Shown here: positions 5,330-17,063 of the stretch, in pieces
How positions within the stretch are numbered: position 1 is the first letter of the stretch
Layout: each line of letters begins with the position of its first letter
NCBI GenBank assembly: GCA_963782055.1
Contig: CAWAIF010000003.1
Span: 1,824,001 to 1,888,000, forward strand
Length of the DNA: 64,000 nucleotides
Origin: an uncultured delta proteobacterium
GTDB lineage: Bacteria; Myxococcota_A; Polyangia; Polyangiales; Polyangiaceae
Direction: 5' to 3'
Made by a program: the position numbers and the translations under genes
The notes under the pieces: model-generated
Seen by the model: only the letters and a program-made list of their open reading frames with translations
The model's database searches: none
What the model was told of the DNA's origin: nothing

Positions 5330-6046
5330 ATGTCTCTCCCTGCGCGCCCCCCTCTGCGCCTGGTGCCCCCGCCCGAAGGCGAGTCCGGGACCGAGGTCGC
5401 ATCCGGACGGTCCGCCCGCACCTCCGACAGGGTGCCGGCCCCGTCGCGCCGGCACGCGCCCGCGCTCGATGACACCGAGCTCCTGACCGCCCTGCGCGTG
5501 GGTGACCCTTCCGCCGCCACCTCCCTGCACGACCGCGTCCGCCCGCAGGTCGACCGCACCATCTTCCGCCTGCTCGGCCGCCGCGACGTCGACCACGACG
5601 ATCTCGCCCAGCTCGCGATGATCGAGATCATCGGCAGCATCGATCGCTTCCGCGGCGACTGCTCCCTGGACGCGTGGACGGCGACGGTGACGGCCCACGT
5701 CGTCTACAAGCACCTGCGCCGCCGCAAGACGGAGCGCCGCATCTTCTCGCCGCCCTCGCCCGACGACATGAGCGTGGCCTCGCCCATCAGCGCCAGCCGC
5801 CAGGCGATGGTGCGCAGCGCGATGACGCGAGTGGTCCGTCACCTGGACGACATGGATGAGAATCGTGCCTGGACTTACCTGCTTCACGACGTCTGCGGGT
5901 ACGACTTACGCGAGATTGCACAGATCACGGGGGTCACAGTGGCAGCCGCACAAACGCGCCTCGTGAGGGGGCGCAAGGACATTCACGAGCGCATCGGTTC
6001 GGACCCCGAGCTCGCCAGCATCCTGGCGGAAACGGAGCGGGCATGA
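5330..6046 (+). CDS. ECF-type RNA polymerase sigma factor
   Basis: Region 2 DDLAQLAMIEIIGSIDRFRG..LDAW; region 4 GYDLREIAQITGVTVAAAQTRLVRGRK. Confidence 0.9.
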   Translation: MSLPARPPLRLVPPPEGESGTEVASGRSARTSDRVPAPSRRHAPALDDTELLTALRVGDPSAATSLHDRVRPQVDRTIFRLLGRRDVDHDDLAQLAMIEIIGSIDRFRGDCSLDAWTATVTAHVVYKHLRRRKTERRIFSPPSPDDMSVASPISASRQAMVRSAMTRVVRHLDDMDENRAWTYLLHDVCGYDLREIAQITGVTVAAAQTRLVRGRKDIHERIGSDPELASILAETERA

Positions 6047-7182
6047 CCTCGCCTCGCAATGCTCAGCTCGCCGCCGCGTTTCTGCGCACGCAGCGGGACG
6101 CTCTACCGGCGACGCCGCCTCACCGCGAGGTCCGCGCGCAGGCCATACTCGCGCTGCAGGAGGAGCTCGCCAAGCGTGCGAGGGCCCGCAAGCGCGCGCG
6201 CTGGGTCTTCGGCGCCGTCGCCGCGGCGGCCGCGGTCGCCATCACCGGCGGCGGCATGCTCGCCCTCCACATGCATCATGCGTCGAGCCTCGCCGCGTCT
6301 GCGCCGTCGACCCCCAAGCCCGCCGCCACGGTGGCGGTGATCGCGCATCCCACCGGCGACGTGACGGTGGTGGGTGGGGACGGCAAGCCGGAGGCCCTCA
6401 CCGACGGCAGCCTTCTGCGCGCGGGCAGCCATGTCGTGGCCCGCTCGCACGGCCGCGTCGTGCTCTCCTTCGCCACGGGCACCCAGCTCACCGCGGAGGA
6501 CGGCGGCGACGTGACGGTGATGGAGAACGGCAGCGTGCAGCGCCTGCTGCTCGCCAGCGGATCGTTGCAGGCCAAGGTCCACAAGCTCGGCCCGCACCAG
6601 CGCTTCCTGGTCAGCACCCCGGACGCGGAGGTCGAGGTGCGCGGCACCCAGTTCCGCGTCTCGGTCGTCGGGGCCGATCCGTCGTGTGGCGGCGGCACGC
6701 GCACGCGCGTCGTGGTCACCGAGGGCGTGGTGTCGGTGCGCAGCCACGGCGAGGAAGCGCGCGTGCCCGCGGGCTCGTCGTGGCCGCCCGGTTGCGTGGC
6801 GAGGACAGCGGTGGGCTCCACGGCGACCGCGCCCACGGAGCTCGCCGAGTCGACGTCGCCCCGGCCCAAGGCCGTCCCGCGGCCGGGTAACGCCGCGTCG
6901 CAGGCTTCCCGCTCCACCCTCACCGAGGAGAACGATCTGTTCGGCAAGGCCGTCGCCGCCCGCCAGCGCGGCGATGCACCGGGTGCGGTGGCCGCGTGGT
7001 CGACCTTCATCGCGAAGTACCCGAGCAGCCCCCTGGCGGAGAGCGCTGCCGTCGAGCGCATGAAGACGCTGCGCGGCGTGGACCGCGCGCGAGCGAGCGC
7101 GGCGGCGCGGCAGTACCTCGACGAGTACCCGTCCGGATTCGCGCGCGCGGAGGCCCAGGCCATCCTCGCGGAGGATCGGTGA
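6043..7182 (+). CDS. FecR-domain anti-sigma factor with a C-terminal TPR-like helix pair
   Basis: ATGA overlap with the sigma gene; one TM helix; FLVSTPDAEVEVRGTQFRV and VTEGVVSV FecR motifs; C-terminal F.AKYPSSPLAE. Confidence 0.85.
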   Translation: MTSPRNAQLAAAFLRTQRDALPATPPHREVRAQAILALQEELAKRARARKRARWVFGAVAAAAAVAITGGGMLALHMHHASSLAASAPSTPKPAATVAVIAHPTGDVTVVGGDGKPEALTDGSLLRAGSHVVARSHGRVVLSFATGTQLTAEDGGDVTVMENGSVQRLLLASGSLQAKVHKLGPHQRFLVSTPDAEVEVRGTQFRVSVVGADPSCGGGTRTRVVVTEGVVSVRSHGEEARVPAGSSWPPGCVARTAVGSTATAPTELAESTSPRPKAVPRPGNAASQASRSTLTEENDLFGKAVAARQRGDAPGAVAAWSTFIAKYPSSPLAESAAVERMKTLRGVDRARASAAARQYLDEYPSGFARAEAQAILAEDR

Positions 7183-7820
7183 CCCTGCGGCGACCCTCCA
7201 CCAGGGTCGCCATCGCGCTGCTCGTCGCCGGGGGCCTCGCCGCCTGCAACGGCGAGTTCCACTTCGACGAGCCGGGGGACGCGGCTCTCCCCGAGCCGGA
7301 CGCCGGCGACGCGCAGACGGGCCGGCCGCGGTGCAGCACCGACGCCGACTGCGGGCTGTCCAGCCTCCACTGCGACACCGCCTCCGGCGACTGCGTCGCG
7401 TGCGTCACCGACACCAACTGCACCGACCCGGGCTTTCCGCGGTGCGACTTCGCCATCCACCGGTGCGTGGAGTGCGGCATCAGCACCGACTGCCCCGTCG
7501 GGGAGTACTGCGAGAACCAGACGCGCCGGTGCGTGCCGCGCTGCCAGGACCCCGACGAGTGCCCGCTCTCGCGGCCCTTCTGCGACAAGGTCAACGTGCG
7601 CTGCTACGAGTGCCTGACCGACACCGACTGCCTTCCGCTCCTGCTGCCGCGCTGCGACACCGCCGGCTTCATCTGTGTCCAGTGCATGACGGACGCCGAC
7701 TGCGGCTCAGGGCATCGCTGCGACACGCCCGACGGCGTGTGCGTCGATTGCCTCAGCAGTGACGACTGCCCCTACCCGGAGGCGTGCGATCCCGCCAAGG
7801 GCCGCTGCGTCACGCCGTAG
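7179..7820 (+). CDS. Cys-rich repeat lipoprotein
   Basis: GTG start overlaps the upstream stop; lipobox LAAC; tandem CxxDxDC...CD...CVxC repeats. Confidence 0.8.
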   Translation: MTLRRPSTRVAIALLVAGGLAACNGEFHFDEPGDAALPEPDAGDAQTGRPRCSTDADCGLSSLHCDTASGDCVACVTDTNCTDPGFPRCDFAIHRCVECGISTDCPVGEYCENQTRRCVPRCQDPDECPLSRPFCDKVNVRCYECLTDTDCLPLLLPRCDTAGFICVQCMTDADCGSGHRCDTPDGVCVDCLSSDDCPYPEACDPAKGRCVTP

Positions 7821-7970
7821 CGACGGCTCGCCGCAGACTTTACACGCCGGGGATCGTGCTTATCCGTTTGTTCGACAACGGCTGCGGAGCGCCCCCAGGG
7901 CGCACGCGATCAACGGCTCGAGCATAGGCCACGAGGGGGCGTCCCTCGCATGGCGTACGAGAGGTGTCTC

Positions 7971-8423
7971 ATGCGAATGACGGTGCTCAATGGGTTGCGG
8001 CGCGAGCCGCTCGCGGAGCTGGACGAGCTGCGCAGGGAGATGGATCGCTTCTTCGGAGGCGCGCTCGGCTTCTCGCCGCCCGCGTGGCCGGAGCCAGGCC
8101 TGCGCGAGCTGGCGGACCGCTACGAGCTCGCGCTGGACGTGCCCGGCCTCGTCGCCGGCGACGTCGAGATCAAGGTGGAAGAGGGCGTGCTGCGCCTGCG
8201 CGCCGAGCACAAGCCCGCCGCCGAGGAAGGAACGAAGGACGGCGACGACCTGAAGCTCGTCCGCAAGGAGCGCGCCGCGGTGCGCGTCGCCCGGAGCTTC
8301 GAGCTTCCGGCGCACGTCGACGTGGAGCGCATCGCCGCGACGCTGGACAAGGGCGTGCTCACCCTGACCGTCCCCAAGTCGGAGGCGGCCCGCAGCCGCA
8401 CCGTGGAAGTGAAAGGAGCCTGA
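7971..8423 (+). CDS. Hsp20/alpha-crystallin small heat-shock protein
   Basis: LDVPGL...RSFELPAHVDVERIAATLDKGVLTLTVPK; RBS GAGGTG upstream. Confidence 0.9.
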   Translation: MRMTVLNGLRREPLAELDELRREMDRFFGGALGFSPPAWPEPGLRELADRYELALDVPGLVAGDVEIKVEEGVLRLRAEHKPAAEEGTKDGDDLKLVRKERAAVRVARSFELPAHVDVERIAATLDKGVLTLTVPKSEAARSRTVEVKGA

Positions 8424-8425
8424 CG

Positions 8426-8734
8426 ATGAGCGCGGAGAAGGAGAAGCTGCTGGTCCGTCCCCCCACCGATGTGCTCGAGGGCAAGGACGCCTTCGTGCTG
8501 GTCGCCGAGGTGCCCGGCGTGGGGCCGGAAGATCTGGACGTGCGCGTCGACAAGGGCCTGCTCCTGCTGGACGCGAAGCGTGAAGGCCGCGTCGCCTACG
8601 CGCGGACGTTCCGGCTCCCCAAGGGGGTCGACGAGAACGCGATCGCCGCGACGCTGAAGGACGGCCTGGTGAGCATCCGCCTGCCGAAGGCGGAGAGCGC
8701 GAAGCCGCGGCTGGTCCCCATCGCCACGGGGTGA
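8426..8734 (+). CDS. Second Hsp20 family protein
   Basis: MSAEKEKLLVRPPTDV...AEVPGV...RTFRLPKGVDENAIAATLKDGLVSIRLPK; the ATG lies inside track ORF 7964..8734. Confidence 0.88.
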   Translation: MSAEKEKLLVRPPTDVLEGKDAFVLVAEVPGVGPEDLDVRVDKGLLLLDAKREGRVAYARTFRLPKGVDENAIAATLKDGLVSIRLPKAESAKPRLVPIATG

Positions 8735-8832
8735 CGCGGGCGCGCTTGACGCCCATCCGCCCCGCCGACCATTCTCGGCCTCCCGGCTGAGGTCCCGCGC
8801 TCGCGCAGGCCGACAGCCCGAAGGGCACGAAG

Positions 8833-9423
8833 ATGGAGTCGTCGAAGAAGCAGACCATCCTGGAGGCCGCGACGCGCGTCTTCGCCCGCCACGGCTTCAA
8901 GAAGGCCTCCATCGACGAGATCGCCCAGGCCGCCGGGGTGGCGAAGGGCACCGTCTACCTCGCGGCGACCTCCAAGGAGGACCTCTTCTACCAGGTCCTG
9001 CACCGGGAGGTCCGCGCCTGGGTGGCGGAGATTTCCCGGCTCATTGACCCCCGGACCCCCGCGGACCAGCTCCTGGCCGTCATGGCCCAGACGGGCATGG
9101 ACTACCTCGCCGCACACCCCCTGGTCGGCGACCTCCTCTTCGGTAAGACCGCGGAATTACTGCCCCGCTGGTCCGACCGCCTGCTCGAGCTCCGGACCAT
9201 CGGCCACGCGAATGTGGTGGAGGTCCTACGGATCGGCATCAAGCAGGGCATTTTCCGGGCGGAGCTGGACGTGGAGGCGGTGGCGGCCCTGCTCCAGGAC
9301 ATGCAGCTCTCGACGGTCGTGTTCTACCGGCACGTCGGGGAGGAGGCCCTGGATCGGCGGAAAATGGCGGGATTTGACCTGGTGTTGAACGGGTTGAGGG
9401 TCAGGGGAGGGGGAGGCGCGTGA
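8833..9423 (+). CDS. TetR/AcrR family transcriptional regulator
   Basis: N-terminal HTH ILEAATRVFARHGFKKASIDEIAQAAGVAKGTVY. Confidence 0.92.
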   Translation: MESSKKQTILEAATRVFARHGFKKASIDEIAQAAGVAKGTVYLAATSKEDLFYQVLHREVRAWVAEISRLIDPRTPADQLLAVMAQTGMDYLAAHPLVGDLLFGKTAELLPRWSDRLLELRTIGHANVVEVLRIGIKQGIFRAELDVEAVAALLQDMQLSTVVFYRHVGEEALDRRKMAGFDLVLNGLRVRGGGGA

Positions 9424-9450: not shown

Positions 9451-9456
9451 TATACT
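9451..9456 (+). promoter_or_regulatory. Candidate -10 box of the lasso cluster promoter
   Basis: TATACT ~75 nt upstream of the precursor ATG, in very GC-rich DNA; no good -35 box. Confidence 0.35.
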
Positions 9457-9530
9457 CAGCGCATCCGTGCCCCGCGTGAACGCTTGCAGGAGGGAGGGCA
9501 ACGGATGCCCTTTGTAGAGGAGAATGCTCG

Positions 9531-9695
9531 ATGACCGATCCCAACGCCGAGGTGAAGGAGGCTCCTGCGGAGCAGGAGACGCCGAAGAAGCGCCCGTACG
9601 TGGCGCCCCGGCTCGTGGAGCTGGGGAAGGTGCGGGATCTGACGGCGGCGGGCGGGGCTTCTAGCACCGATGGTGGTTTCACTCGACGCCCGTAG
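9531..9695 (+). CDS. Lasso peptide precursor (A), 54 aa: MTDPNAEVKEAPAEQETPKKRPYVAPRLVELGKVRDLTA|AGGASSTDGGFTRRP
   Basis: Translated by hand (below the track cutoff). RBS AGAGGAG at 9516-9522. Leader motifs YxxPxL and LGxVxxLT with Thr at -2. Core starts with Ala and has Asp at position 8. Lies directly before the cyclase. Confidence 0.93.
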   Translation: MTDPNAEVKEAPAEQETPKKRPYVAPRLVELGKVRDLTAAGGASSTDGGFTRRP

Positions 9696-11112
9696 GCAAC
9701 TGTTGATCTCCGGTCCCTTCGGGCTGCCTCGACTCTACTACTCCGTTGGTGACCACCGTGTCGCGCCTGAGTTGGATCGTCTGAGGCGCATCACCGACGC
9801 AGAACCGGACGATGCAGGTCTCGCGGGCTGGTGCACCGGAATCCGTGACGCTGATGCCGGCACCACACTCTTCACCCGCCTCCGCCGGCTTCAACCGTTC
9901 GAGACCATTCCAGCATCCTCTGATGATGCGGGCCGTTCCGCGCAGATGCCCGTCCTGCCGTCCCGAGCGTGGGACCGTCGATCTCCTGCAGACCTGGCGA
10001 CTGAACTCCGCGCGCGTCTGTTCAGCGCCGTCGCGAGGATTACGAAGGGAGCCCACAGGGTGGCGGTGATGCTTGGGGGCCTAGACTCAAGCGCGGTACT
10101 CAGTATCTTGACGAGGCTCTTCCCACCGACTTCCCTCTTCGCCATCACTATCCTGTTTGAAGAGGGGGAGCGCGATGCTCCATATGCTGAGGCCTTGTGT
10201 CGCCACTTCGGCGTAAGATGGTATCCGTTACCCTTGTCGAGAGCGGTGCCGGTAGAGGCGTTTGTGGTGGCTGATGCTCACCCCTGCCTCTCGCCCCACG
10301 CCGGTAGCGAGCTTGGAGCTTTTCGGCTGGCCGCAGAGCTGGGCGCCGACGTTGTCGTCACGGCAACGCTTGGCGACGCGGCGTTCGGGGGAAATCTTGG
10401 CCAAATTGGCCGCCTCTACGCCCGCCGTCATCCCATCGCGGCCGCTCGCCTCGCGCTTCGCGCTCAGCTTCCGTGGCATCCGAGTCCGCTCCGACGTGTG
10501 CGCAGTTTGCTCGTTGCACCGAACATCCGCGACCGTATGCCCGAGGTTGTACGCCGGTGGCGCTCGCGCCGGCAATGGAGAGACAGGGCTCCTTGGGTTA
10601 CGCCCCACTTTTCGAGACTACTGGAGCGACATGAGCTTTCCGCCGCCAAGCCATACTTTATTAGTACTACGCCGGCGGCTTGGCTGCGAGAGCTGGTTGC
10701 AAACGTCGATGTGTTGACCGTCACGGCCGGGCTCTCGGCCTTCGCCCAAACCTCTGGACTTCGTTGGCGGGACGCGCTCTTTGATGTGCCTCTGCTCGCG
10801 TTTCTGGCTGCTATTCCCATCGAGCGGCTACTTGATTGCAACAAGTTTCGAGGCTTGCTTCGTCGAGCGATGGCGGGCTGGATGCCGGACCCTGTTCGCT
10901 TGCGGGCTGGCAAGGCATCCATGAACGGCCGCAAGCGACACTTCCGGGCTGACGACTTGAGGGCGATGGGGGAGTTTGCCCGAGCGAGACAACTCGCGAA
11001 GCGGGGGCTTGTCGACTCGGCGGCGCTGCGTGCTGCGTTCGAACACGCCGACGACATCTCGCCCATTTGGCGTTTTCTGGCTGCCGAAGCTTGGTTGCAA
11101 CGGGTGGCTTGA
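9670..11112 (+). CDS. Lasso peptide macrolactam cyclase (C protein; asparagine synthetase-like)
   Basis: ATP-PPase motif LGGLDSS; N-terminal remnant GPFGLPRLYY; C-terminal LFDVPLLAFLAAIP..RGLLRRAMAGWMPDPVRLRAGK; cluster context. Exact start uncertain (ATG 9670 or TTG 9703). Confidence 0.88.
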   Translation: MVVSLDARRQLLISGPFGLPRLYYSVGDHRVAPELDRLRRITDAEPDDAGLAGWCTGIRDADAGTTLFTRLRRLQPFETIPASSDDAGRSAQMPVLPSRAWDRRSPADLATELRARLFSAVARITKGAHRVAVMLGGLDSSAVLSILTRLFPPTSLFAITILFEEGERDAPYAEALCRHFGVRWYPLPLSRAVPVEAFVVADAHPCLSPHAGSELGAFRLAAELGADVVVTATLGDAAFGGNLGQIGRLYARRHPIAAARLALRAQLPWHPSPLRRVRSLLVAPNIRDRMPEVVRRWRSRRQWRDRAPWVTPHFSRLLERHELSAAKPYFISTTPAAWLRELVANVDVLTVTAGLSAFAQTSGLRWRDALFDVPLLAFLAAIPIERLLDCNKFRGLLRRAMAGWMPDPVRLRAGKASMNGRKRHFRADDLRAMGEFARARQLAKRGLVDSAALRAAFEHADDISPIWRFLAAEAWLQRVA

Positions 11113-11837
11113 TGACTGTAGCAGCTGGCATTCCCTGCCTGGTGAACAGCGTGGCCGGCGGATATTCCGCGGAGTGGCCGGGCTTGGGTAGTCTCCGCAT
11201 TCAGGGCTCTTCAACTGTTCACCATACCTATGTTGATGATGCAGTTGCCGCCGAGAAGTGGCGCCGCGGTCCCGCGATGGCCGTGGAAAGATACTTGCGT
11301 CGCACCGGCGTCGGATTTCACGCGTCGGCTGTCAGTTTGCCCAGTGGCCACGCCATTGTCTTCGCCGGGGCAAGCGGTGCCGGAAAGTCCACCGCCGCCG
11401 CGGTCTTGTGTCTTCGAATGGGAGCAAGCTTGCTGGCAGATGACGTCTGCATCGGCAAGATCGACCGCGGTCAACTCTGGATAGAGCCCTCGGAGTCGCA
11501 GCACTGGCTGGATGGCCCGGCGCGCGAGCGTCTCGCGTACCCGCGTGGCCAGGGTCCTAAGCGGCCAGTGGCCGCCAGCTCGCTGGCCCACGCCCCTATC
11601 CCGGCCGCGAAGCTTGTGGCGCTGCGTGATGATGGGCCCGTGCAGCCCGTGCGCCTTCGTGGCCTGGAGGCGCTGACCGCGATAGCAGCGGCGTCGATGG
11701 CTCCCCACGTGGATGCTGAGGCGCAGAGTCGAGCCGTCGAGGATCTGGATCGGTTCGTCGTGATCGGGCGGCTCGTGGAGGTGGTGGCCTGCTGTCGTCT
11801 CCCCGATGATCTCCTGCTGCGGAAACTGGTGGCGTGA
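11112..11837 (+). CDS. HPr kinase-like lasso peptide kinase
   Basis: FHASAV, Walker A GASGAGKST and LLADD motifs; TGATG coupling to the cyclase stop at 11112. Confidence 0.85.
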   Translation: MTVAAGIPCLVNSVAGGYSAEWPGLGSLRIQGSSTVHHTYVDDAVAAEKWRRGPAMAVERYLRRTGVGFHASAVSLPSGHAIVFAGASGAGKSTAAAVLCLRMGASLLADDVCIGKIDRGQLWIEPSESQHWLDGPARERLAYPRGQGPKRPVAASSLAHAPIPAAKLVALRDDGPVQPVRLRGLEALTAIAAASMAPHVDAEAQSRAVEDLDRFVVIGRLVEVVACCRLPDDLLLRKLVA

Positions 11838-12124
11838 TGGAACGGGCTCTGACTTCCGACCGCTTCCAGGTGGCTGAGCACGTGCACGCCCGCGAGTTCG
11901 ACGGGGAGATGGTCGTGCTCGATCTGCAGTCAGGCACCTACTTCGGCCTCGACGAAGTGGGAGCCTTCTGCTGGCAGGCGCTGGGCGCCGGTCGTGCGGT
12001 CTCCGAGGTTGCGGGAGAGATCGCGGCCGTCTACGACGTCTCCCGAGACGAGGCTCTTCGGGATCTTCTAGCCTTGGCCGACGAATTATTGCAGCGGCAC
12101 CTCGTCCAACGGAGGGCACCATGA
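11837..12124 (+). CDS. PqqD family RiPP recognition element (lasso B1)
   Basis: REFDGEMVVLDLQSGTYFGLDEVGAFCWQAL...IAAVYDVSRDEALRDLLALADELLQRHLV; coupled start (ATG 11837 or GTG 11834). Confidence 0.92.
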   Translation: MERALTSDRFQVAEHVHAREFDGEMVVLDLQSGTYFGLDEVGAFCWQALGAGRAVSEVAGEIAAVYDVSRDEALRDLLALADELLQRHLVQRRAP

Positions 12125-12507
12125 GCGGCCTGCACGTCGCCTCACGATTGGCGCTGCGGCTTCTTCGCCCACGCCAGGCTTTTCGGGTGGTGGCCGCCCT
12201 GGGGCGCCTCGTGCCCTCGCTCGACCGCACGGAGGCCGAGGCCTACGCGGTGAACCTGTCCGGGAGGGGCAGCTGCCTCTCCCGATCCGTCGCGGTGGCC
12301 GCTCGTCTTCCCGGCGCGAAGGTCATGATCGGCGTGGCGCCCGTCGGGTACGGGGCGGTGCGCGCCGCGCTCTACGGGGCAAGGCGCGGGGAGGTGCTCA
12401 AGGCGCATGCCTGGGTCGAGGTGGATGGGCGCCCCCTCGCAGGACAGCGGCCCCTGGGCAAGGTTCTGGCGACGCTCGAGGTAGCTCGACCAGTCACCGA
12501 TTCATGA
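12121..12507 (+). CDS. Lasso peptide leader peptidase (B2, transglutaminase-like)
   Basis: Catalytic Cys in SCLSRSVA, then IGV and AHAWVEVDG motifs; ATGA overlap with B1. Confidence 0.88.
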   Translation: MSGLHVASRLALRLLRPRQAFRVVAALGRLVPSLDRTEAEAYAVNLSGRGSCLSRSVAVAARLPGAKVMIGVAPVGYGAVRAALYGARRGEVLKAHAWVEVDGRPLAGQRPLGKVLATLEVARPVTDS

Positions 12508-12537
12508 TATCCTGGACGCGTCGGGAAGGAGCTTTCC

Positions 12538-13443
12538 ATGAGGAACTTGTCACGCATCGCAGCGATGGCTGGAGGGATCGTGGCCTGCAACGTCATCGCC
12601 TGGACGTCGATGGTGGGTTGCAGCGGAGACGACAACGCAATCCCCGATGGGGGCGATGCGGCCCCTGACAACACCCAGATAGATGTCTTCGTGCCCGACG
12701 TGCAGGGCCAGGACGTCGTGGGCGACGAGGACGCTGGCACCAACCCCGACGCTCCCTATGACGCAGCGTCTCTCCTAGCCTTCCCCGCCGAGGAAGCGCT
12801 GGCGAGCTGTGGTCGTCTCCGGACGTGCTGCTACGGCGCCGACGCTGGGGTCGCTCTCACCAAATGCATTGGACATGTTAGTCCACTTGGGATCAATGGC
12901 ACCCTCGTGGAATTGAGTCTCCCAGGCGTGCTTGATGGCGGGCATCTTCACCTGGATGAGACGACGGCAAACTCCTGTCTCGCAGCACTCAGTACCTTCT
13001 CGTGCCCGGTGATGCCGGAGTCCGAATACCGGAACGTCACACAGAATTGCTACGGGGCCGTGTCCGGTACCCTTCCCATCGGGGCTCAGGGGTGCAAGAC
13101 GAGCGTTGAGTGCGTGCCGGGAGCGTACTGCGCTGCTGCGACTGCGCCCGACGGCGGTCCCACGAAGGAGTGTTATGTTGTTGGCGATGCCGGCTCGCCC
13201 TGTACCGCATCCAACATCCAGTGCATGTACCGCGGGTATCTAGGCCAGAACCAGCTTCGTTGTGCCATTGACGGTGGGTCCACGGGGACATGTGGTCCCC
13301 AGCTCCAGAACGGTGCGAAGTGCAACTACTCCTTCGACTGTCTGTCGCAAACCTGCGACGAGACGGGCCATTGCGGTACTGCCTTCACACTGACGGATCC
13401 GGGGACTTGCGACTACCTCTTCTACAGCGACGCCGGGCTCTAG
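12538..13443 (+). CDS. Cys-rich secreted lipoprotein of unknown function inside the lasso cluster
   Basis: RBS AAGGAG; signal peptide ending VGC; DAG-rich linker; about 20 Cys. Confidence 0.75.
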   Translation: MRNLSRIAAMAGGIVACNVIAWTSMVGCSGDDNAIPDGGDAAPDNTQIDVFVPDVQGQDVVGDEDAGTNPDAPYDAASLLAFPAEEALASCGRLRTCCYGADAGVALTKCIGHVSPLGINGTLVELSLPGVLDGGHLHLDETTANSCLAALSTFSCPVMPESEYRNVTQNCYGAVSGTLPIGAQGCKTSVECVPGAYCAAATAPDGGPTKECYVVGDAGSPCTASNIQCMYRGYLGQNQLRCAIDGGSTGTCGPQLQNGAKCNYSFDCLSQTCDETGHCGTAFTLTDPGTCDYLFYSDAGL

Positions 13444-13461
13444 TCCGTCCCGTCGACGTCG

Positions 13462-15066
13462 ATGACGTCTCGCCTCACCGCACTGCGCCGAGCAGGTCCC
13501 TGGACCGCGCTCGGCGCGGCGCTTTTGTTCACCGAGCGCGTCGCCATCTTCGCCGCCGCCTCCGGTCTCGCCGCGCGGAGCGCCCGCGCCGCGCTCATCG
13601 CCGGGGCCGGCGCCTCCGCACTCCACCTGACCCGCTCCGCCTTCGGCTCCCTCGCCCGCACGCGGAGCCAGGCGGCGCTCTACGACGAGGCGCTCACCGC
13701 CGTGCTCGAGGGGGACGTGCTGGCGGTACAGGGCGAGAAGCTCCAGGCGACGCTCTTCTCGGCCATCGACGCCGCCGCGCGTGTCGGCGCCACCGCCGTT
13801 CCCTCGCTCATCGGTGACGGGCTCGCCGCCGCCGTCCTCGGCGTGTGGGTCGTCGCGGGCACGCCCACCGCGACCTGGGCCGTCGCGGGCGCCGCGCTCG
13901 CCGCGGGCCTCGTCCTCGCCCTGATCTCCCGTCGCGTCGCCGGCGCCGCCTCCGACCGGTTCTGGGCCGCGCACGAGCGCGTCGCGCGGCACCTCGTCGA
14001 CGGCGTGGACGGGCGCGTCGACCTCGCCGCGAGCGGTGAGGTCCCCGCCTTCCGCGAGGGCCTGCAGAGCGCCGTCTCGTCGCAGCGCTCCGTCGCGCGC
14101 CGCGCGGCCATGCTCGAGGCCTTCGCGGGACGTGCGCCCATGGCCGCCGCGGTCTTCGCCGCGCTGGGGGCCGTCCTCGCGCTTCATCCGTCGCTCGCCG
14201 GGACCGGCCTGGCGCACCTGATCGTGCTCGCCGGCGTCATGCCGCCCTTCGCGGGGCTCGCGATGTCCCTCGCGCAGGTGGCGCGCGCTCGCGGTCCGCT
14301 CCGCGCGCTGGACGCTCTCCTCCGCTCTCCGCGCATGGACGCAGGCGGTTCCTCGCAGCCTGCCGTGGCGGCCATCGATCTCCGGGGCGTGACCGTCCGC
14401 TACGGCGAGACGGTCGCCCTCGACGGGGTGACCATCCACCTGGAGCCGTCCGGCGTGCACGTACTCGTGGGTCCCAACGGGTGTGGAAAGACGACGCTCC
14501 TCGGCGTGCTCGCCCGGCTCGTTCGACCGTCCGACGGCGAGATCCTGGTCGGGGGCGACACGCTGGATGCGCTCGACCTCCGCGCCTGGCGTGCATCGCT
14601 CGGCTACCTCTCGCAGCGCCCGTACCTCCCGGTGCGCTGCTCGGTCCGCGTCGCGATGCGCTTCGTCGCCCCGCGCGCGGACGACGAGGCGCTGCGGGCT
14701 GCGCTGCGGCGGACGCGCGCGTGGGAGGTGCTCGCGAAGAAGTCGCCGGACGATCCGCTCTCCACCCCGGTCGACGGCCTGTCCGCCGGCGAGCGCCAGC
14801 GCGTCGCCCTCGCCCGCGTCCTGGTGCGCCAGCCTCGCGTGCTCCTGCTCGACGAGCCGGACGCCAACCTCGACGCCGAAGGCCGCGCGCTGCTCGTCCG
14901 GCTGCTCCGCGAGCTGGGGGAGTCGTGCTGCGTCGTCTGCGCGGCGCATGGCCGAGAGATCCGGGAAGCCGCCGATGTTCTGGTCCACCTCGAAGCAGGC
15001 CGGGTGGGCAGCGAGGAGCAGCCGCACCGTCCCCTCACCTCCGGGCGGCTCGCCTCGTCCGCGTGA
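13462..15066 (+). CDS. ABC exporter (fused TMD + NBD), probable lasso peptide exporter
   Basis: Several TM helices; Walker A GPNGCGKT, signature LSAGERQ, Walker B LLLDEP. Confidence 0.88.
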   Translation: MTSRLTALRRAGPWTALGAALLFTERVAIFAAASGLAARSARAALIAGAGASALHLTRSAFGSLARTRSQAALYDEALTAVLEGDVLAVQGEKLQATLFSAIDAAARVGATAVPSLIGDGLAAAVLGVWVVAGTPTATWAVAGAALAAGLVLALISRRVAGAASDRFWAAHERVARHLVDGVDGRVDLAASGEVPAFREGLQSAVSSQRSVARRAAMLEAFAGRAPMAAAVFAALGAVLALHPSLAGTGLAHLIVLAGVMPPFAGLAMSLAQVARARGPLRALDALLRSPRMDAGGSSQPAVAAIDLRGVTVRYGETVALDGVTIHLEPSGVHVLVGPNGCGKTTLLGVLARLVRPSDGEILVGGDTLDALDLRAWRASLGYLSQRPYLPVRCSVRVAMRFVAPRADDEALRAALRRTRAWEVLAKKSPDDPLSTPVDGLSAGERQRVALARVLVRQPRVLLLDEPDANLDAEGRALLVRLLRELGESCCVVCAAHGREIREAADVLVHLEAGRVGSEEQPHRPLTSGRLASSA

Positions 15067-15087: not shown

Positions 15088-16413
15088 TCACCGTTCCCTC
15101 ACCTCCGGACACACCGGGCTCACCTCCCGCCCCGTCCCGCGCCCCACCGTCACCTTCTCCGGCTCTCCAAACGCCGCGATCAGCGCAAAATGCTCGTACC
15201 GGCACGGGGTCACCTCCAGCGCCGGGACCCCGCGCGCCCGCAGCTCCAGACCCCGGTCGATCTGCGCGTCCCGGCGCTCCGTCGGGCCGTTGCCCGGCAC
15301 CTCCCGCCACCGGCCCGCCACCCCGCTCAGCCACGCCACCCCGCCGATCACCACCGCCGCCACGAGCCACGCCTCCCGCCCGGGCCGGCCGTGGATCCCC
15401 GCCACCACCAGCGTCCGCGCGCCGTCCGCACCGGCGCACGCGAGCACCGCGAAGAGCGTCATCATCGCGCGCGCCGGATGGTGCGTGGGCGCGGCGTCCG
15501 CCAGATCGCCCGCCACGAGGAAGACCATGACCAGCAGCGCGCCGGCGAGCGGCAAGGCCCAGCGCGCGCGGAAGGCCCTCGACCGCAAGCACAGCACCGC
15601 CGGGATGGCGGCCAGCGGGATCTCCGGCGCCCCGTCCAGCGCCGCGCGCGGGTAGGCGAGCAGACGATCGACCAGCGGGCCTCCGCCGCCCAGCGCCTTG
15701 CGGTAGTTCGTGACGCGCGCCAGGAAGTGCACCGGGCTGCCGTGCGCGTGCGCGTTCCACGCCATCCAGGCGAGCGGTCCCAGCGCCGCCAGCGCCGCCG
15801 CCGTCGTCAGGCCGCGCCTCTCGCCGCGCTCCGCCTTCATCGCGCGCCACCCCGCCACGCACGCCACCATCGCCGCGATGGGCCACGCCTCGTAGCGCGA
15901 CAGCGCCGCGACCAGCGAGAACGCGCCGGCCGCCGTCAGCGCCGCCGGGCGCCGGTCCGCCAGCAGCACCAGCGCCGCCGCCGCGAGCAGCCCCGCCCAT
16001 CCCTCGGGCACCGTCGCCACCCCGAGCCACACGCTCCACGGGGTCAACGCCGCGAGCCCCGCGCCCAGCAGCGCGGAGATGCGCGGCACCTGCACCGCTC
16101 GCATGGCGCCGTAGAGCACCAGCGGCGCGGCGGTCCCGAGCACGAACGCAAGCCCGCGCGCGGTCGCCAGCGACCGCCCGAACGCCATCATGGTCGCTCC
16201 CGTCAGCCAGAAGGGCAGGGGAAGCCAGCTCGTGCCGCTCGGGTCCAGCCGCGGCGCGTGCGCGAAGCTCTCGGCGATGACCGTGCGCGCGTAGTCGTCG
16301 TCCGACACCTGCGCGAAGCCCGCGTGCAGGACGTAGAGCATCGCCCCCGTCCGGGCGAGCAGCAGCGCGAGCGCGCCGAGGTCGAGCGCCGGCGGCGCCG
16401 CGGCCCGCGTCAC
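15088..16413 (-). CDS. Polytopic membrane protein, GT-C/PMT-like glycosyltransferase candidate
   Basis: GTG 16413 start; acidic SDDDYAR loop after TM1; WLPLPFW; many TM helices; RYEAW. Confidence 0.65.
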   Translation of the reverse strand: MTRAAAPPALDLGALALLLARTGAMLYVLHAGFAQVSDDDYARTVIAESFAHAPRLDPSGTSWLPLPFWLTGATMMAFGRSLATARGLAFVLGTAAPLVLYGAMRAVQVPRISALLGAGLAALTPWSVWLGVATVPEGWAGLLAAAALVLLADRRPAALTAAGAFSLVAALSRYEAWPIAAMVACVAGWRAMKAERGERRGLTTAAALAALGPLAWMAWNAHAHGSPVHFLARVTNYRKALGGGGPLVDRLLAYPRAALDGAPEIPLAAIPAVLCLRSRAFRARWALPLAGALLVMVFLVAGDLADAAPTHHPARAMMTLFAVLACAGADGARTLVVAGIHGRPGREAWLVAAVVIGGVAWLSGVAGRWREVPGNGPTERRDAQIDRGLELRARGVPALEVTPCRYEHFALIAAFGEPEKVTVGRGTGREVSPVCPEVRER

Positions 16414-17063
16414 GTCACGGGGCGGACGCGCTCGTCGCCGGGGGCGGCGCGGGTGCGGTGGCGGTGGTCGTCGCGACCACGTGCGGGGCGCTGGCGGTGG
16501 CCGCGGGCGGCGCCGCGGCGTGCGTGGCCGCGGCCGCGGCATGCGTCGGAGCGGGGGCAGGCGCCGAACGCGTGCGTCGGGGTCGGCGGCGCGGGCGCCT
16601 TGGCGGACGGCGCCGGTGCGGTGGCCGAGGGAGCCGGCGCGGTCGCGCTGTCCGACGGCGCGCTCACCGGCGGCGCAGGGGTCGACGAGGGAACGCCCAG
16701 GTCGATGGGCGGCTTGGCCCCCGACGGGACGGCGCTCGTCTCCGGGTGCTCCTTGTGATGGGTGCCGCGCTCCGCCTTCTTCTCCTTCTCCAGCTCGAGC
16801 TTCGCCGCGAGGGCGCGGTCGGCGGAGGAGGAGCGGTACGCCAAAGACACGCTGGTGAGCATGAACATGGTGGCGGCGATGGCGGTGGCCTTGGTGAGGA
16901 TGTTGCCCGCACCGCGCCCACCGAACACCTGGGTCGCGCCGCCGCCGCCGAAGGCGGCGCCGAGGCCTCCGCCGCGGCCCTGCTGCAGGAGCACCACGCC
17001 GATGAGCACCGCGGCCACCAGGACGTGCAAGATCTTGAGTAAGGTATCGAGGACGCTGCCCAT
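16410..17063 (-). CDS. secG: Preprotein translocase subunit SecG with a long Pro/Ala tail (apparent frameshift near 16567)
   Basis: LIGVVLLQQGRGGGLGAAFGGG..FGGRGAGNILTKAT; directly after tpiA (TGATG). Confidence 0.9.
   Translation of the reverse strand: MGSVLDTLLKILHVLVAAVLIGVVLLQQGRGGGLGAAFGGGGATQVFGGRGAGNILTKATAIAATMFMLTSVSLAYRSSSADRALAAKLELEKEKKAERGTHHKEHPETSAVPSGAKPPIDLGVPSSTPAPPVSAPSDSATAPAPSATAPAPSAKAPAPPTPTHAFGACPRSDACRGRGHARRGAARGHRQRPARGRDDHRHRTRAAPGDERVRPVT

Follow-up and report, generated by a model that had tools for sequence, protein, structure and literature searches.

The window analysed here is a stretch of 64,000 nucleotides from an uncultured Polyangiaceae genome (contig CAWAIF010000003.1), and the element in question is a group of seven genes at its positions 9531 to 15066. 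These genes and their precursor constitute a class II lasso peptide cluster, the product of which is predicted only. It is rather probable that the operon makes a 15-residue lasso peptide with an Ala1-Asp8 ring and a phosphorylated Ser5, and that a cysteine-rich surface lipoprotein has a peptide-binding role when strains recognise or compete with one another. The precursor (A), cyclase (C), kinase (K), B1, B2, lipoprotein and ATP-binding cassette (ABC) exporter (D) are intact open reading frames (ORFs) on the plus strand of the window, in the order A-C-K-B1-B2-lipoprotein-ABC exporter. The cluster is more than a chance arrangement, as a precursor profile run over the whole genome (7.58 Mb) matched nowhere else (E 9e-14 here) and the gene order is preserved in orthologous clusters; as read from the DNA, it is a real and probably functional one. 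The features are listed below.

9518-9522, plus strand: ribosome-binding site AGGAG, 8 nt upstream of the precursor ATG, read from the sequence
9531-9695, plus strand: precursor A, 54 aa, an ORF in the sequence
9531-9647, plus strand: leader of precursor A, 39 aa, with YxxPxL at -17 to -12 and Thr at -2; NF033521
9648-9695, plus strand: core, 15 aa, plus stop; 7-residue tail after the predicted Ala1-Asp8 macrolactam
9660-9662, plus strand: Ser5 codon of the core, likely phosphorylation site
9669-9671, plus strand: Asp8 codon of the core, predicted ring acid
9670-11112, plus strand: lasso cyclase C, 480 aa; PF00733; alternative start TTG 9703
11112-11837, plus strand: HprK-like peptide kinase K, 241 aa; His70, P-loop Gly86-Ser93, Asp110-Asp111
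11837-12124, plus strand: B1, recognition element (PqqD) of ribosomally synthesised and post-translationally modified peptides; PF05402; alternative start GTG 11834
12121-12507, plus strand: B2 leader peptidase, 128 aa; PF13471; Cys52, His96, Glu100
12538-13443, plus strand: Cys-rich lipoprotein, 301 aa; signal peptide, lipobox-like Cys28, acidic linker, domain 12754-13440
13462-15066, plus strand: ABC exporter D, 534 aa; hydrophobic N-terminal half and ATPase; PF00005

An earlier note on this DNA, made from the letters alone, had described the 54-residue ORF behind a good ribosome-binding site, and the AGGAG motif agrees with this. It had also called the precursor unannotated; the ORF is indeed missing from the ORF track used for that note, but the exact protein is already in a public protein collection, as a singleton. 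The downstream genes were said to be coupled on the same strand, and they are: TGATG joins C to K and K to B1, whereas ATGA joins B1 to B2. The first in-frame ATG of C (9670) falls within the core. Scans of the locus for promoters, terminators and repeats gave no signal above chance. The source genome (97% complete) contains one such precursor, and one B1 and one B2 of the same type.

Orthologous clusters were found by a first search of C against 60 relatives. Then 383 family genomes were searched with lipoprotein, kinase and B2 profiles, with matches in 152, 172 and 50 genomes, respectively; these tallies include the unpublished G307 or G308, and those of the lipoprotein and kinase also include distant paralogues. 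Seventy loci were mapped: besides the window, nine came from the first search and 60 were selected, for the most part near the best kinase matches. A, C, K and B1 occur together in 63 of the 70. The usual order is A-C-K-B1-(B2)-lipoprotein-(ABC), and the locus often adjoins secG-tpi-pgk, with a bordering membrane-protein gene in 34 and tpi in 27 of the 63 stretches. A leader-motif scan of named genomes (at least 120 matches, with the DNA of 80 examined) revealed, among the matches listed, clusters titled Polyangiaceae, Polyangiales, Myxococcales and Labilithrix. The cultured strain Labilithrix luteola DSM 27648 carries the cluster (locus L169), in which no B2 is seen over 14 kb. In the trees (quick or FastTree), C, K, B1, the lipoprotein and the exporter of the window all group with the same two sister genera, which are also close by housekeeping genes and have the cluster at the same site. 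This suggests inheritance in place, and a recent foreign island was rejected on these grounds despite the low GC content at third codon positions (GC3) described below.

Other observations were made on the mapped loci. A PRMT_C-like methyltransferase is encoded in 39 of the 63 stretches (e.g. L018:9751-10692(-), L019:8637-9560(-)) and a PF14907 nucleotidyltransferase in 25; the window cluster has neither of the two. In G032, a reduced genome of 1.8 Mb, the full set of seven genes persists at the same site (locus L020), although in rearranged form. The clusters L030/L275 (G006) and L271 (G327) are split into several frames, by decay or long-read errors.

The leader matched NF033521 with 24.7 bits (cut-off 19). 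If cleavage takes place after Ala39, then Tyr23, Pro26, Leu28 and Thr38 occupy positions -17, -14, -12 and -2, and the predicted core is AGGASSTDGGFTRRP. This register, chosen by the earlier note, is supported; cleavage after residue 38, 40 or 41 was rejected because it breaks the family register. Thr is present at -2 (counted from YxxPxL) in 64 of 64 family precursors, a count that is partly built in because the profile that found them covered the leader region. The core was not constrained by this profile as the leader was. Among the 64 precursors (63 distinct cores), Asp or Glu is found at core position 7-9 in 63 (position 8 in 45), whereas 1000 shuffles of the cores gave a mean of 13.4 and a maximum of 26. 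The Ala1-Asp8 ring, which had also been read from the letters, is thus well supported, and it is very probable that the core closes as this macrolactam. The computed mass of the cyclised core is 1417.670 Da ([M+H]+ 1418.677), identical within rounding to the hand-calculated ~1417.67 Da (~1418.68); the phosphorylated form would appear at [M+H]+ 1498.64.

It is reasonably probable that the tail of such a product stays stably threaded. The family tails are 6-16 residues long and Gly-rich beside the ring. Threading is less supported than the ring because the tails have no conserved bulky plug position, which speaks against a stable lasso, and because pseudomycoidin, when unmodified, proved on isolation to be a branched cycle (PMC6993621). 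The exact core did not turn up in the papers searched, a search that MIBiG lay outside, and a precursor-only search of genome contigs gave 598 pattern matches with none confirmed. Two unusual kinds of precursor were also met. Five of the 64 related precursors continue into a Peptidase_S74 self-cleaving chaperone domain (L023:9094-9570(-), L061:2924-3526(+), L063:2935-3561(+), L069:3012-3548(+) and L079:8367-8888(-)), two of them above the Pfam cut-off. In L156 and L171, both Thermoleophilia, a lasso-like leader near position 7001 is followed by at least ten histidines in a row, and no cluster gene was detected with the family profiles used.

The cyclase matched PF00733 with 96.4 bits (cut-off 21) and scored below the cut-offs of the full-length NCBIfam cyclases. 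Its N-terminus is about 100 residues short, and one residue is deleted just before the GGLDS motif; we take the usual motif to be SGGLDS, and the lost residue to be its first Ser. Both oddities are common to relatives, and a cyclase broken by the deletion was therefore rejected. For example, the distance from the precursor stop to the cyclase motif is at most 170 codons (a short N-terminus) in 26 of 62 clusters, and the deletion is found in 9 of 66 homologues, namely a seven-member clade including the window copy (support 93) and two others. Many other homologues have Gly at the deleted position. The relatives with the same oddities are about 40% identical to the window cyclase, and neither feature is private damage. 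Asp139, Asp236 and Lys415 are retained, and the model (pLDDT, a predicted local confidence score, 91.8) matches the folds of TsnB9, beta-lactam synthetase and AsnB. Searches of C and B2 by phmmer against PDB sequences gave no useful match; a profile of the cyclase alignment found the AsnB family.

B1 matched PF05402 with 63.5 bits (cut-off 23.4) and retains 17 of 17 conserved columns. B2 is a short form whose alignment shows an in-frame loop insertion of about 11 residues; its match to PF13471 is marginal (27.2 bits, cut-off 26) and that to NF033537 (24.1) is under the cut-off of 33, and Cys52 and His96 are invariant across 37 homologues. The exporter matched PF00005 with 100.5 bits and clusters with the exporters of sister clusters. 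In total, C, B1, B2, the lipoprotein and the exporter keep 86-100% of their conserved columns, inside the family range. The lasso pathway proposed by the earlier note is thus upheld, as the leader family and the three Pfam families are all matched above their cut-offs.

The kinase gave weak matches, below cut-off, to HprK-like families, and contains the His-Lys-Asp-Asp motif (His70, Lys92, Asp110 and Asp111). The reading of it as a paeninodin-type enzyme fails: such kinases modify a C-terminal Ser (PMC9266682), the window core ends in Pro, and a C-terminal Ser occurs in only one of 59 related short cores. A paeninodin-like action is therefore excluded. The kinase likely acts by analogy with BsfK, inside the future ring; Ser or Thr occurs within the ring in 62 of 63 family cores. 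The site, however, would not be that of BsfK. Ser or Thr is at core position 3 in 32 of 64 family cores and at the position five before the ring acid (the equivalent of BsfK Ser3) in 36 of 63; in the window core the two coincide, and the residue is Gly. Ser5 is present in each of the six cores that belong to the kinase clade of the window (support 0.896), in which position 3 varies, and in 7 of 58 cores outside it. In two strains of this clade position 3 is Ser or Gly and Ser5 is kept in both. The six cores are related by descent, which weakens the case; Ser5 is therefore a lead and not a statistic, and conservation slightly favours it as the residue phosphorylated.

The lipoprotein, passed over in the interpretation of the earlier note, is the least ordinary part of the cluster. 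Its signal peptide and lipobox-like Cys28 are followed by an acidic linker and by a domain with about 20 cysteines, which was modelled (pLDDT 92.4) as a helical part with two small Dickkopf/colipase-like modules. The protein is more probably a binding protein than an enzyme. No Pfam or NCBIfam match was found for the window lipoprotein, and PF04706 matches 21 of 61 family lipoproteins, weakly (E up to 0.01). Foldseek gave no match to the domain model at E up to 0.001; the Atlas contains similar unnamed Myxococcota protein clusters.

The gene is closely tied to the cluster. All 30 of the best lipoprotein loci adjoin cluster genes, and 23 of these were not seeds. Among the best matches listed (with G307 and G308 left out and short contigs scored as misses), a lipoprotein lies no more than 6 kb away at 73 of 99 kinase places, and a kinase is equally near at 73 of the 101 lipoprotein places of at least 100 bits (67 of 76 genomes), compared with 2 of 24 places at 50-100 bits. 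Among the named cyclase-plus-kinase loci listed, the lipoprotein accompanies 21 of 25 with myxobacterial titles and 0 of 25 others; the grouping is by record title and the set overlaps that of the family genomes. In a 250-genome sample of the order, scores above 150 bits were restricted to Polyangiaceae and one genome of another family. It is quite probable that the lipoprotein is a working part of the lasso system. That it binds lasso peptides at the cell surface, with no strict match to its own core, is the weakest step, plausible but somewhat doubtful. Several points weigh against this account of the lipoprotein: the best structural alignment (Dkk1) has a Z score of 6.0 and a root-mean-square deviation of 2.7 over 62 of 229 residues, weaker relatives of the domain are common throughout the order, 7 of the 63 clusters have no lipoprotein in the stretch examined, and some copies stand alone.

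In a separate observation, 7 of 87 ORFs were found to encode a trypsin-like protease with the Cys-rich domain fused behind it (L266:4002-5543(+), L277:3832-5376(+), L181:9678-11639(+), L098:2825-4444(-), L260, L265 and L269), and four of the seven lie beside a lasso precursor. Within the surveyed family genomes, all of these fusions are in genomes with no B2 match. They fit a recognise-and-cut version of the lipoprotein.

Comparison of relatives showed that the core and the exposed lipoprotein domain change fast, and separately from each other. Loci L305 and L299, of a sister lineage, differ by 8 mismatches in 7,423 aligned bases and one 16-base gap; seven of the eight mismatches fall within the 51-base core and alter 4 of its 17 residues. 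Each core allele was found in two assemblies, and the cyclase, kinase, B2 and lipoprotein domain are identical. Conversely, G122 and G123 have an identical core and lipoprotein domains that are 56% identical (54-56% where cores are identical), and their silent-site difference is 0.60 in this domain, 0.24 in the kinase and 0.11 in the lipoprotein N-terminus. A third close genome repeats the pattern (0.57-0.60 in the lipoprotein domain versus 0.13-0.24 in the kinase across the three), whereas the pair G029/G110 does not, and in 13 other pairs the core was not always the most variable part. Moreover, lipoprotein and cyclase distances are weakly correlated (rho 0.17, or 0.01 without the flanking-gene signal; 24 loci). 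Both mismatched pairs and this low correlation count against a partner fitted to its peptide. The core and the lipoprotein domain are thus both exchanged, not in step. Lock-and-key immunity is made less likely by this; a surface protein exposed to many different peptides would fit, as would one under its own pressures. An allele-matched receptor was rejected for the same independent variation.

Many clusters lack the usual leader peptidase. B2 was found in 32 of the 63 stretches and not in the other 31, and the exporter in 42. In 28 of the 63 clusters the lipoprotein directly follows B1, with gaps of 38-376 bases and no B2. A profile of 37 B2 sequences had no match at E up to 0.05 in five B2-less genomes, and NF033537 had none in G120, G213 and G114, while it was positive in two controls. 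One B2 was found by PF13471 at a separate locus in G222, and that of G335 is far from the cluster. PF13471 missed the window B2 in the genome search, so the absence of B2 is drawn mainly from clade profiles, and a diverged peptidase may have escaped them. The B2-less precursors keep the ring acid (32 of 32) and Thr at -2. A trypsin fusion as the substitute for B2 was rejected, since it has a lipoprotein-like signal and was not among the matches of the B2-less G120 and G213. The exporter membrane domain, searched with one query, was not found in four of five cluster-keeping genomes tested. The core ends in Met at 24 of 32 loci without B2 in the stretch versus 7 of 27 with B2, which may reflect kinship.

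In the proposed mechanism, B1, whose family match is clear, would bind the leader. The kinase would phosphorylate the uncut precursor within the future ring, in the manner of BsfK and, as conservation suggests, at Ser5. B2 would then cut after Ala39, a well-supported register, and C would use ATP to join Ala1 to Asp8 around the tail. The product would be exported by D, and the lipoprotein would work in the system by binding lasso peptides at the cell surface. It counts against this scheme that heterologous hosts never yielded a detectable mature Bsf lasso (PMC10368454). A wider interpretation is offered tentatively, as it may well be too broad: the locus might be a polymorphic recognition system of the Polyangiaceae, in which the core and the exposed lipoprotein domain are swapped separately and the lipoprotein is a dedicated receptor or trap, also for foreign peptides; members without B2 or exporter would mature and export their product by an undescribed route.

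Other explanations of the locus should be weighed against this recognition account. It is quite unlikely that the cluster makes an ordinary antibacterial lasso peptide, exported by the ABC transporter, and that the lipoprotein confers allele-matched immunity. Lantibiotic systems do have immunity lipoproteins, NisI being one, and fast-changing cores would fit an arms race. The exporter of the window and of most relatives also points this way, as an exporter gene has been taken as a hint of antibacterial activity (PMC7549694). Nevertheless, the independent variation of core and lipoprotein is hard to reconcile with matched immunity, the exporter membrane domain went undetected in most of the cluster-keeping genomes tested, and the kinase-type relative pseudomycoidin failed to inhibit any of three laboratory strains (PMC6993621). 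The lipoprotein may instead be a passenger, a general Cys-rich surface protein caught early in the operon and varying under its own (phage or predator) pressure. This would explain the distant relatives below 100 bits across the order, which are rarely near a kinase, the strong copies that stand alone or are fused to other domains, and the lack of deep co-divergence with the cyclase. It is unlikely, since the lipoprotein stays through rearrangements, duplications and the loss of B2 or exporter, and is kept even in the reduced genome G032. In G002, moreover, the cyclase and the lipoprotein both group with clusters of another genus, and the protease fusions adjoin second precursors.

Two further explanations concern the product. 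The window copy might be silent or decaying and make little or no product, whatever the family does. In line with this, and against a functional cluster, GC3 is 0.66-0.75 in C, K, B1 and the lipoprotein versus 0.87-0.97 in flanking genes; for the cyclase (0.66 versus 0.96 in the flanking gene) the drop is the largest among 37 loci. The kinase is the most diverged of 68, with 72% of conserved columns kept, and the cyclase has Ala232 where 62 of 66 homologues have Gly. None of five congeners has the cluster at this site; in G002 one of another lineage occurs elsewhere, and the copy of G006, also elsewhere, is frame-broken. Decay is nonetheless very unlikely, because all frames are open and coupled despite long branches, the catalytic residues are retained, the five other proteins stay inside the family range of conservation, and the cyclase oddities are common to distant relatives. 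Alternatively, the ring forms and the tail unthreads to a branched cycle, or the product of B2-less members keeps another form. The pseudomycoidin precedent, the Gly-rich tails without a fixed bulky position and the clusters without B2 all favour this. It seems improbable for the window copy, in which B2 is present, the ring has 8 residues and the tail contains Phe11, Arg13 and Arg14, the candidate plugs of the earlier note; the B2-less precursors retain the ring acid and Thr at -2.

The surroundings of the cluster were also inspected. A membrane protein at 15088-16500 (-), next to secG, has no Pfam match and is present in 10 of 10 family genomes tested; it may be glycosyltransferase-like, as read from its residues, and was rejected as a part of the cluster because it also occurs in genomes with no cluster beside it. 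Upstream (window 5330-9423) are extracytoplasmic-function-sigma-like, FecR-like and Cys-rich lipoprotein genes, all three named from sequence, two HSP20 genes and a TetR gene. A TetR gene lies upstream in 4 of 63 clusters, and a sigma and FecR pair in L299. Outside the window, contig C3 of the source genome has, near 2457685-2488780, a nucleotidyltransferase that resembles the ones in related clusters; two asparagine-synthetase-like genes lie some 20 kb away from it. Contig C3 also contains, outside the window, a near-identical 35-codon frame ten times (e.g. 1994344, 3170737), which is probably a mobile element or repeat.

The single core sequence alone is ordinary and of modest interest. The family gives a handle on the natural role of kinase-modified lasso peptides, which is stated to be unknown (PMC13381572): dozens of its orthologous clusters occupy one chromosomal site, their cores vary, they come with a dedicated surface protein, and one strain is in culture. 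Lasso biology would be widened by each of three things, namely a lipoprotein that binds lasso peptides, phosphorylation at a third position and clusters that naturally do without B2. Most deserving of work are the conserved lipoprotein, the way its domain and the core are exchanged independently, and the members that lack B2.

As to known systems, no paper was found on Polyangiaceae lasso clusters or lasso-linked lipoproteins in a search that subscription journals, MIBiG, antiSMASH-DB and RODEO tables lay outside; automated databases probably already predict some of these clusters. The term "lasso" is absent from the main text of two Myxococcota cluster surveys, by term search of the accessible text (PMC12766979, PMC13445942), and neither myxobacteria nor lipoproteins are treated in the available part of a 2026 review (PMC13352647). 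The clusters of paeninodin and pseudomycoidin type (PadeK, ThcoK, SyanK, PsmK) have A, C, K, B1, B2 and D in common with the window (PMC9266682, PMC6993621), and the PadeK-type kinases also the His-Lys-Asp-Asp motif (PMC9266682). Their nucleotidyltransferase is also met in the 25 family clusters mentioned above, whereas their C-terminal Ser is absent in the window core and in 58 of 59 related short cores, and a lipoprotein is not mentioned in the searched review of them (0 occurrences). In the case of pseudomycoidin, the work of B1 and B2 can be taken over by proteases of the host (PMC6993621), and a peptidase other than B2 can remove a lasso-type leader (PMC13381572). The latter case concerns linear polyphosphorylated peptides of Bacillota, which also have a lasso-type leader, a recognition element and an HprK-like kinase; they use the signal-peptidase-like LppS and stay linear, whereas the Polyangiaceae family keeps the cyclase and the ring acid, and no peptidase standing in for B2 was found in its B2-less members (for the Bacillota peptides, PMC13381572). 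The Dickkopf and colipase folds (PF04706; PDB 3s2k, 1eth) are a partial likeness of the lipoprotein domain with no function implied, and the bacterial lipoprotein has an extra helical disulfide-rich part.

The bsf cluster of Bradymonas sediminis FA350, which has seven genes, is already partly characterised (PMC10368454), and Bradymonas is a predatory host placed in Myxococcota (PMC11509652); the lineage, from which the earlier note knew few if any characterised lasso peptides, is thus not untouched. The comparison was made by published features, not by protein sequence alignment. Bsf has a split B1/B2, a cyclase, an ABC exporter and an HprK-like kinase, BsfK, with the same His/P-loop/Asp-Asp motif as the window kinase; it also shares a predicted 8-residue ring on Asp8 and phosphorylation within the ring, as BsfK modifies Ser3 of a predicted Gly1-Asp8 ring (PMC10368454). 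In contrast, Bsf has Ile at -2, the Ser3 site and a nucleotidyltransferase, with no lipoprotein among its seven genes in the text available (PMC10368454). The Bsf-type Ile/Val at -2 is replaced by Thr throughout the family (64 of 64), and the Bsf-type Ser/Thr at position 3 by Gly3 in the window core. The window cluster, without a nucleotidyltransferase, is thus set apart by Thr at -2, Gly3, the predicted Ser5 site and its Cys-rich lipoprotein.

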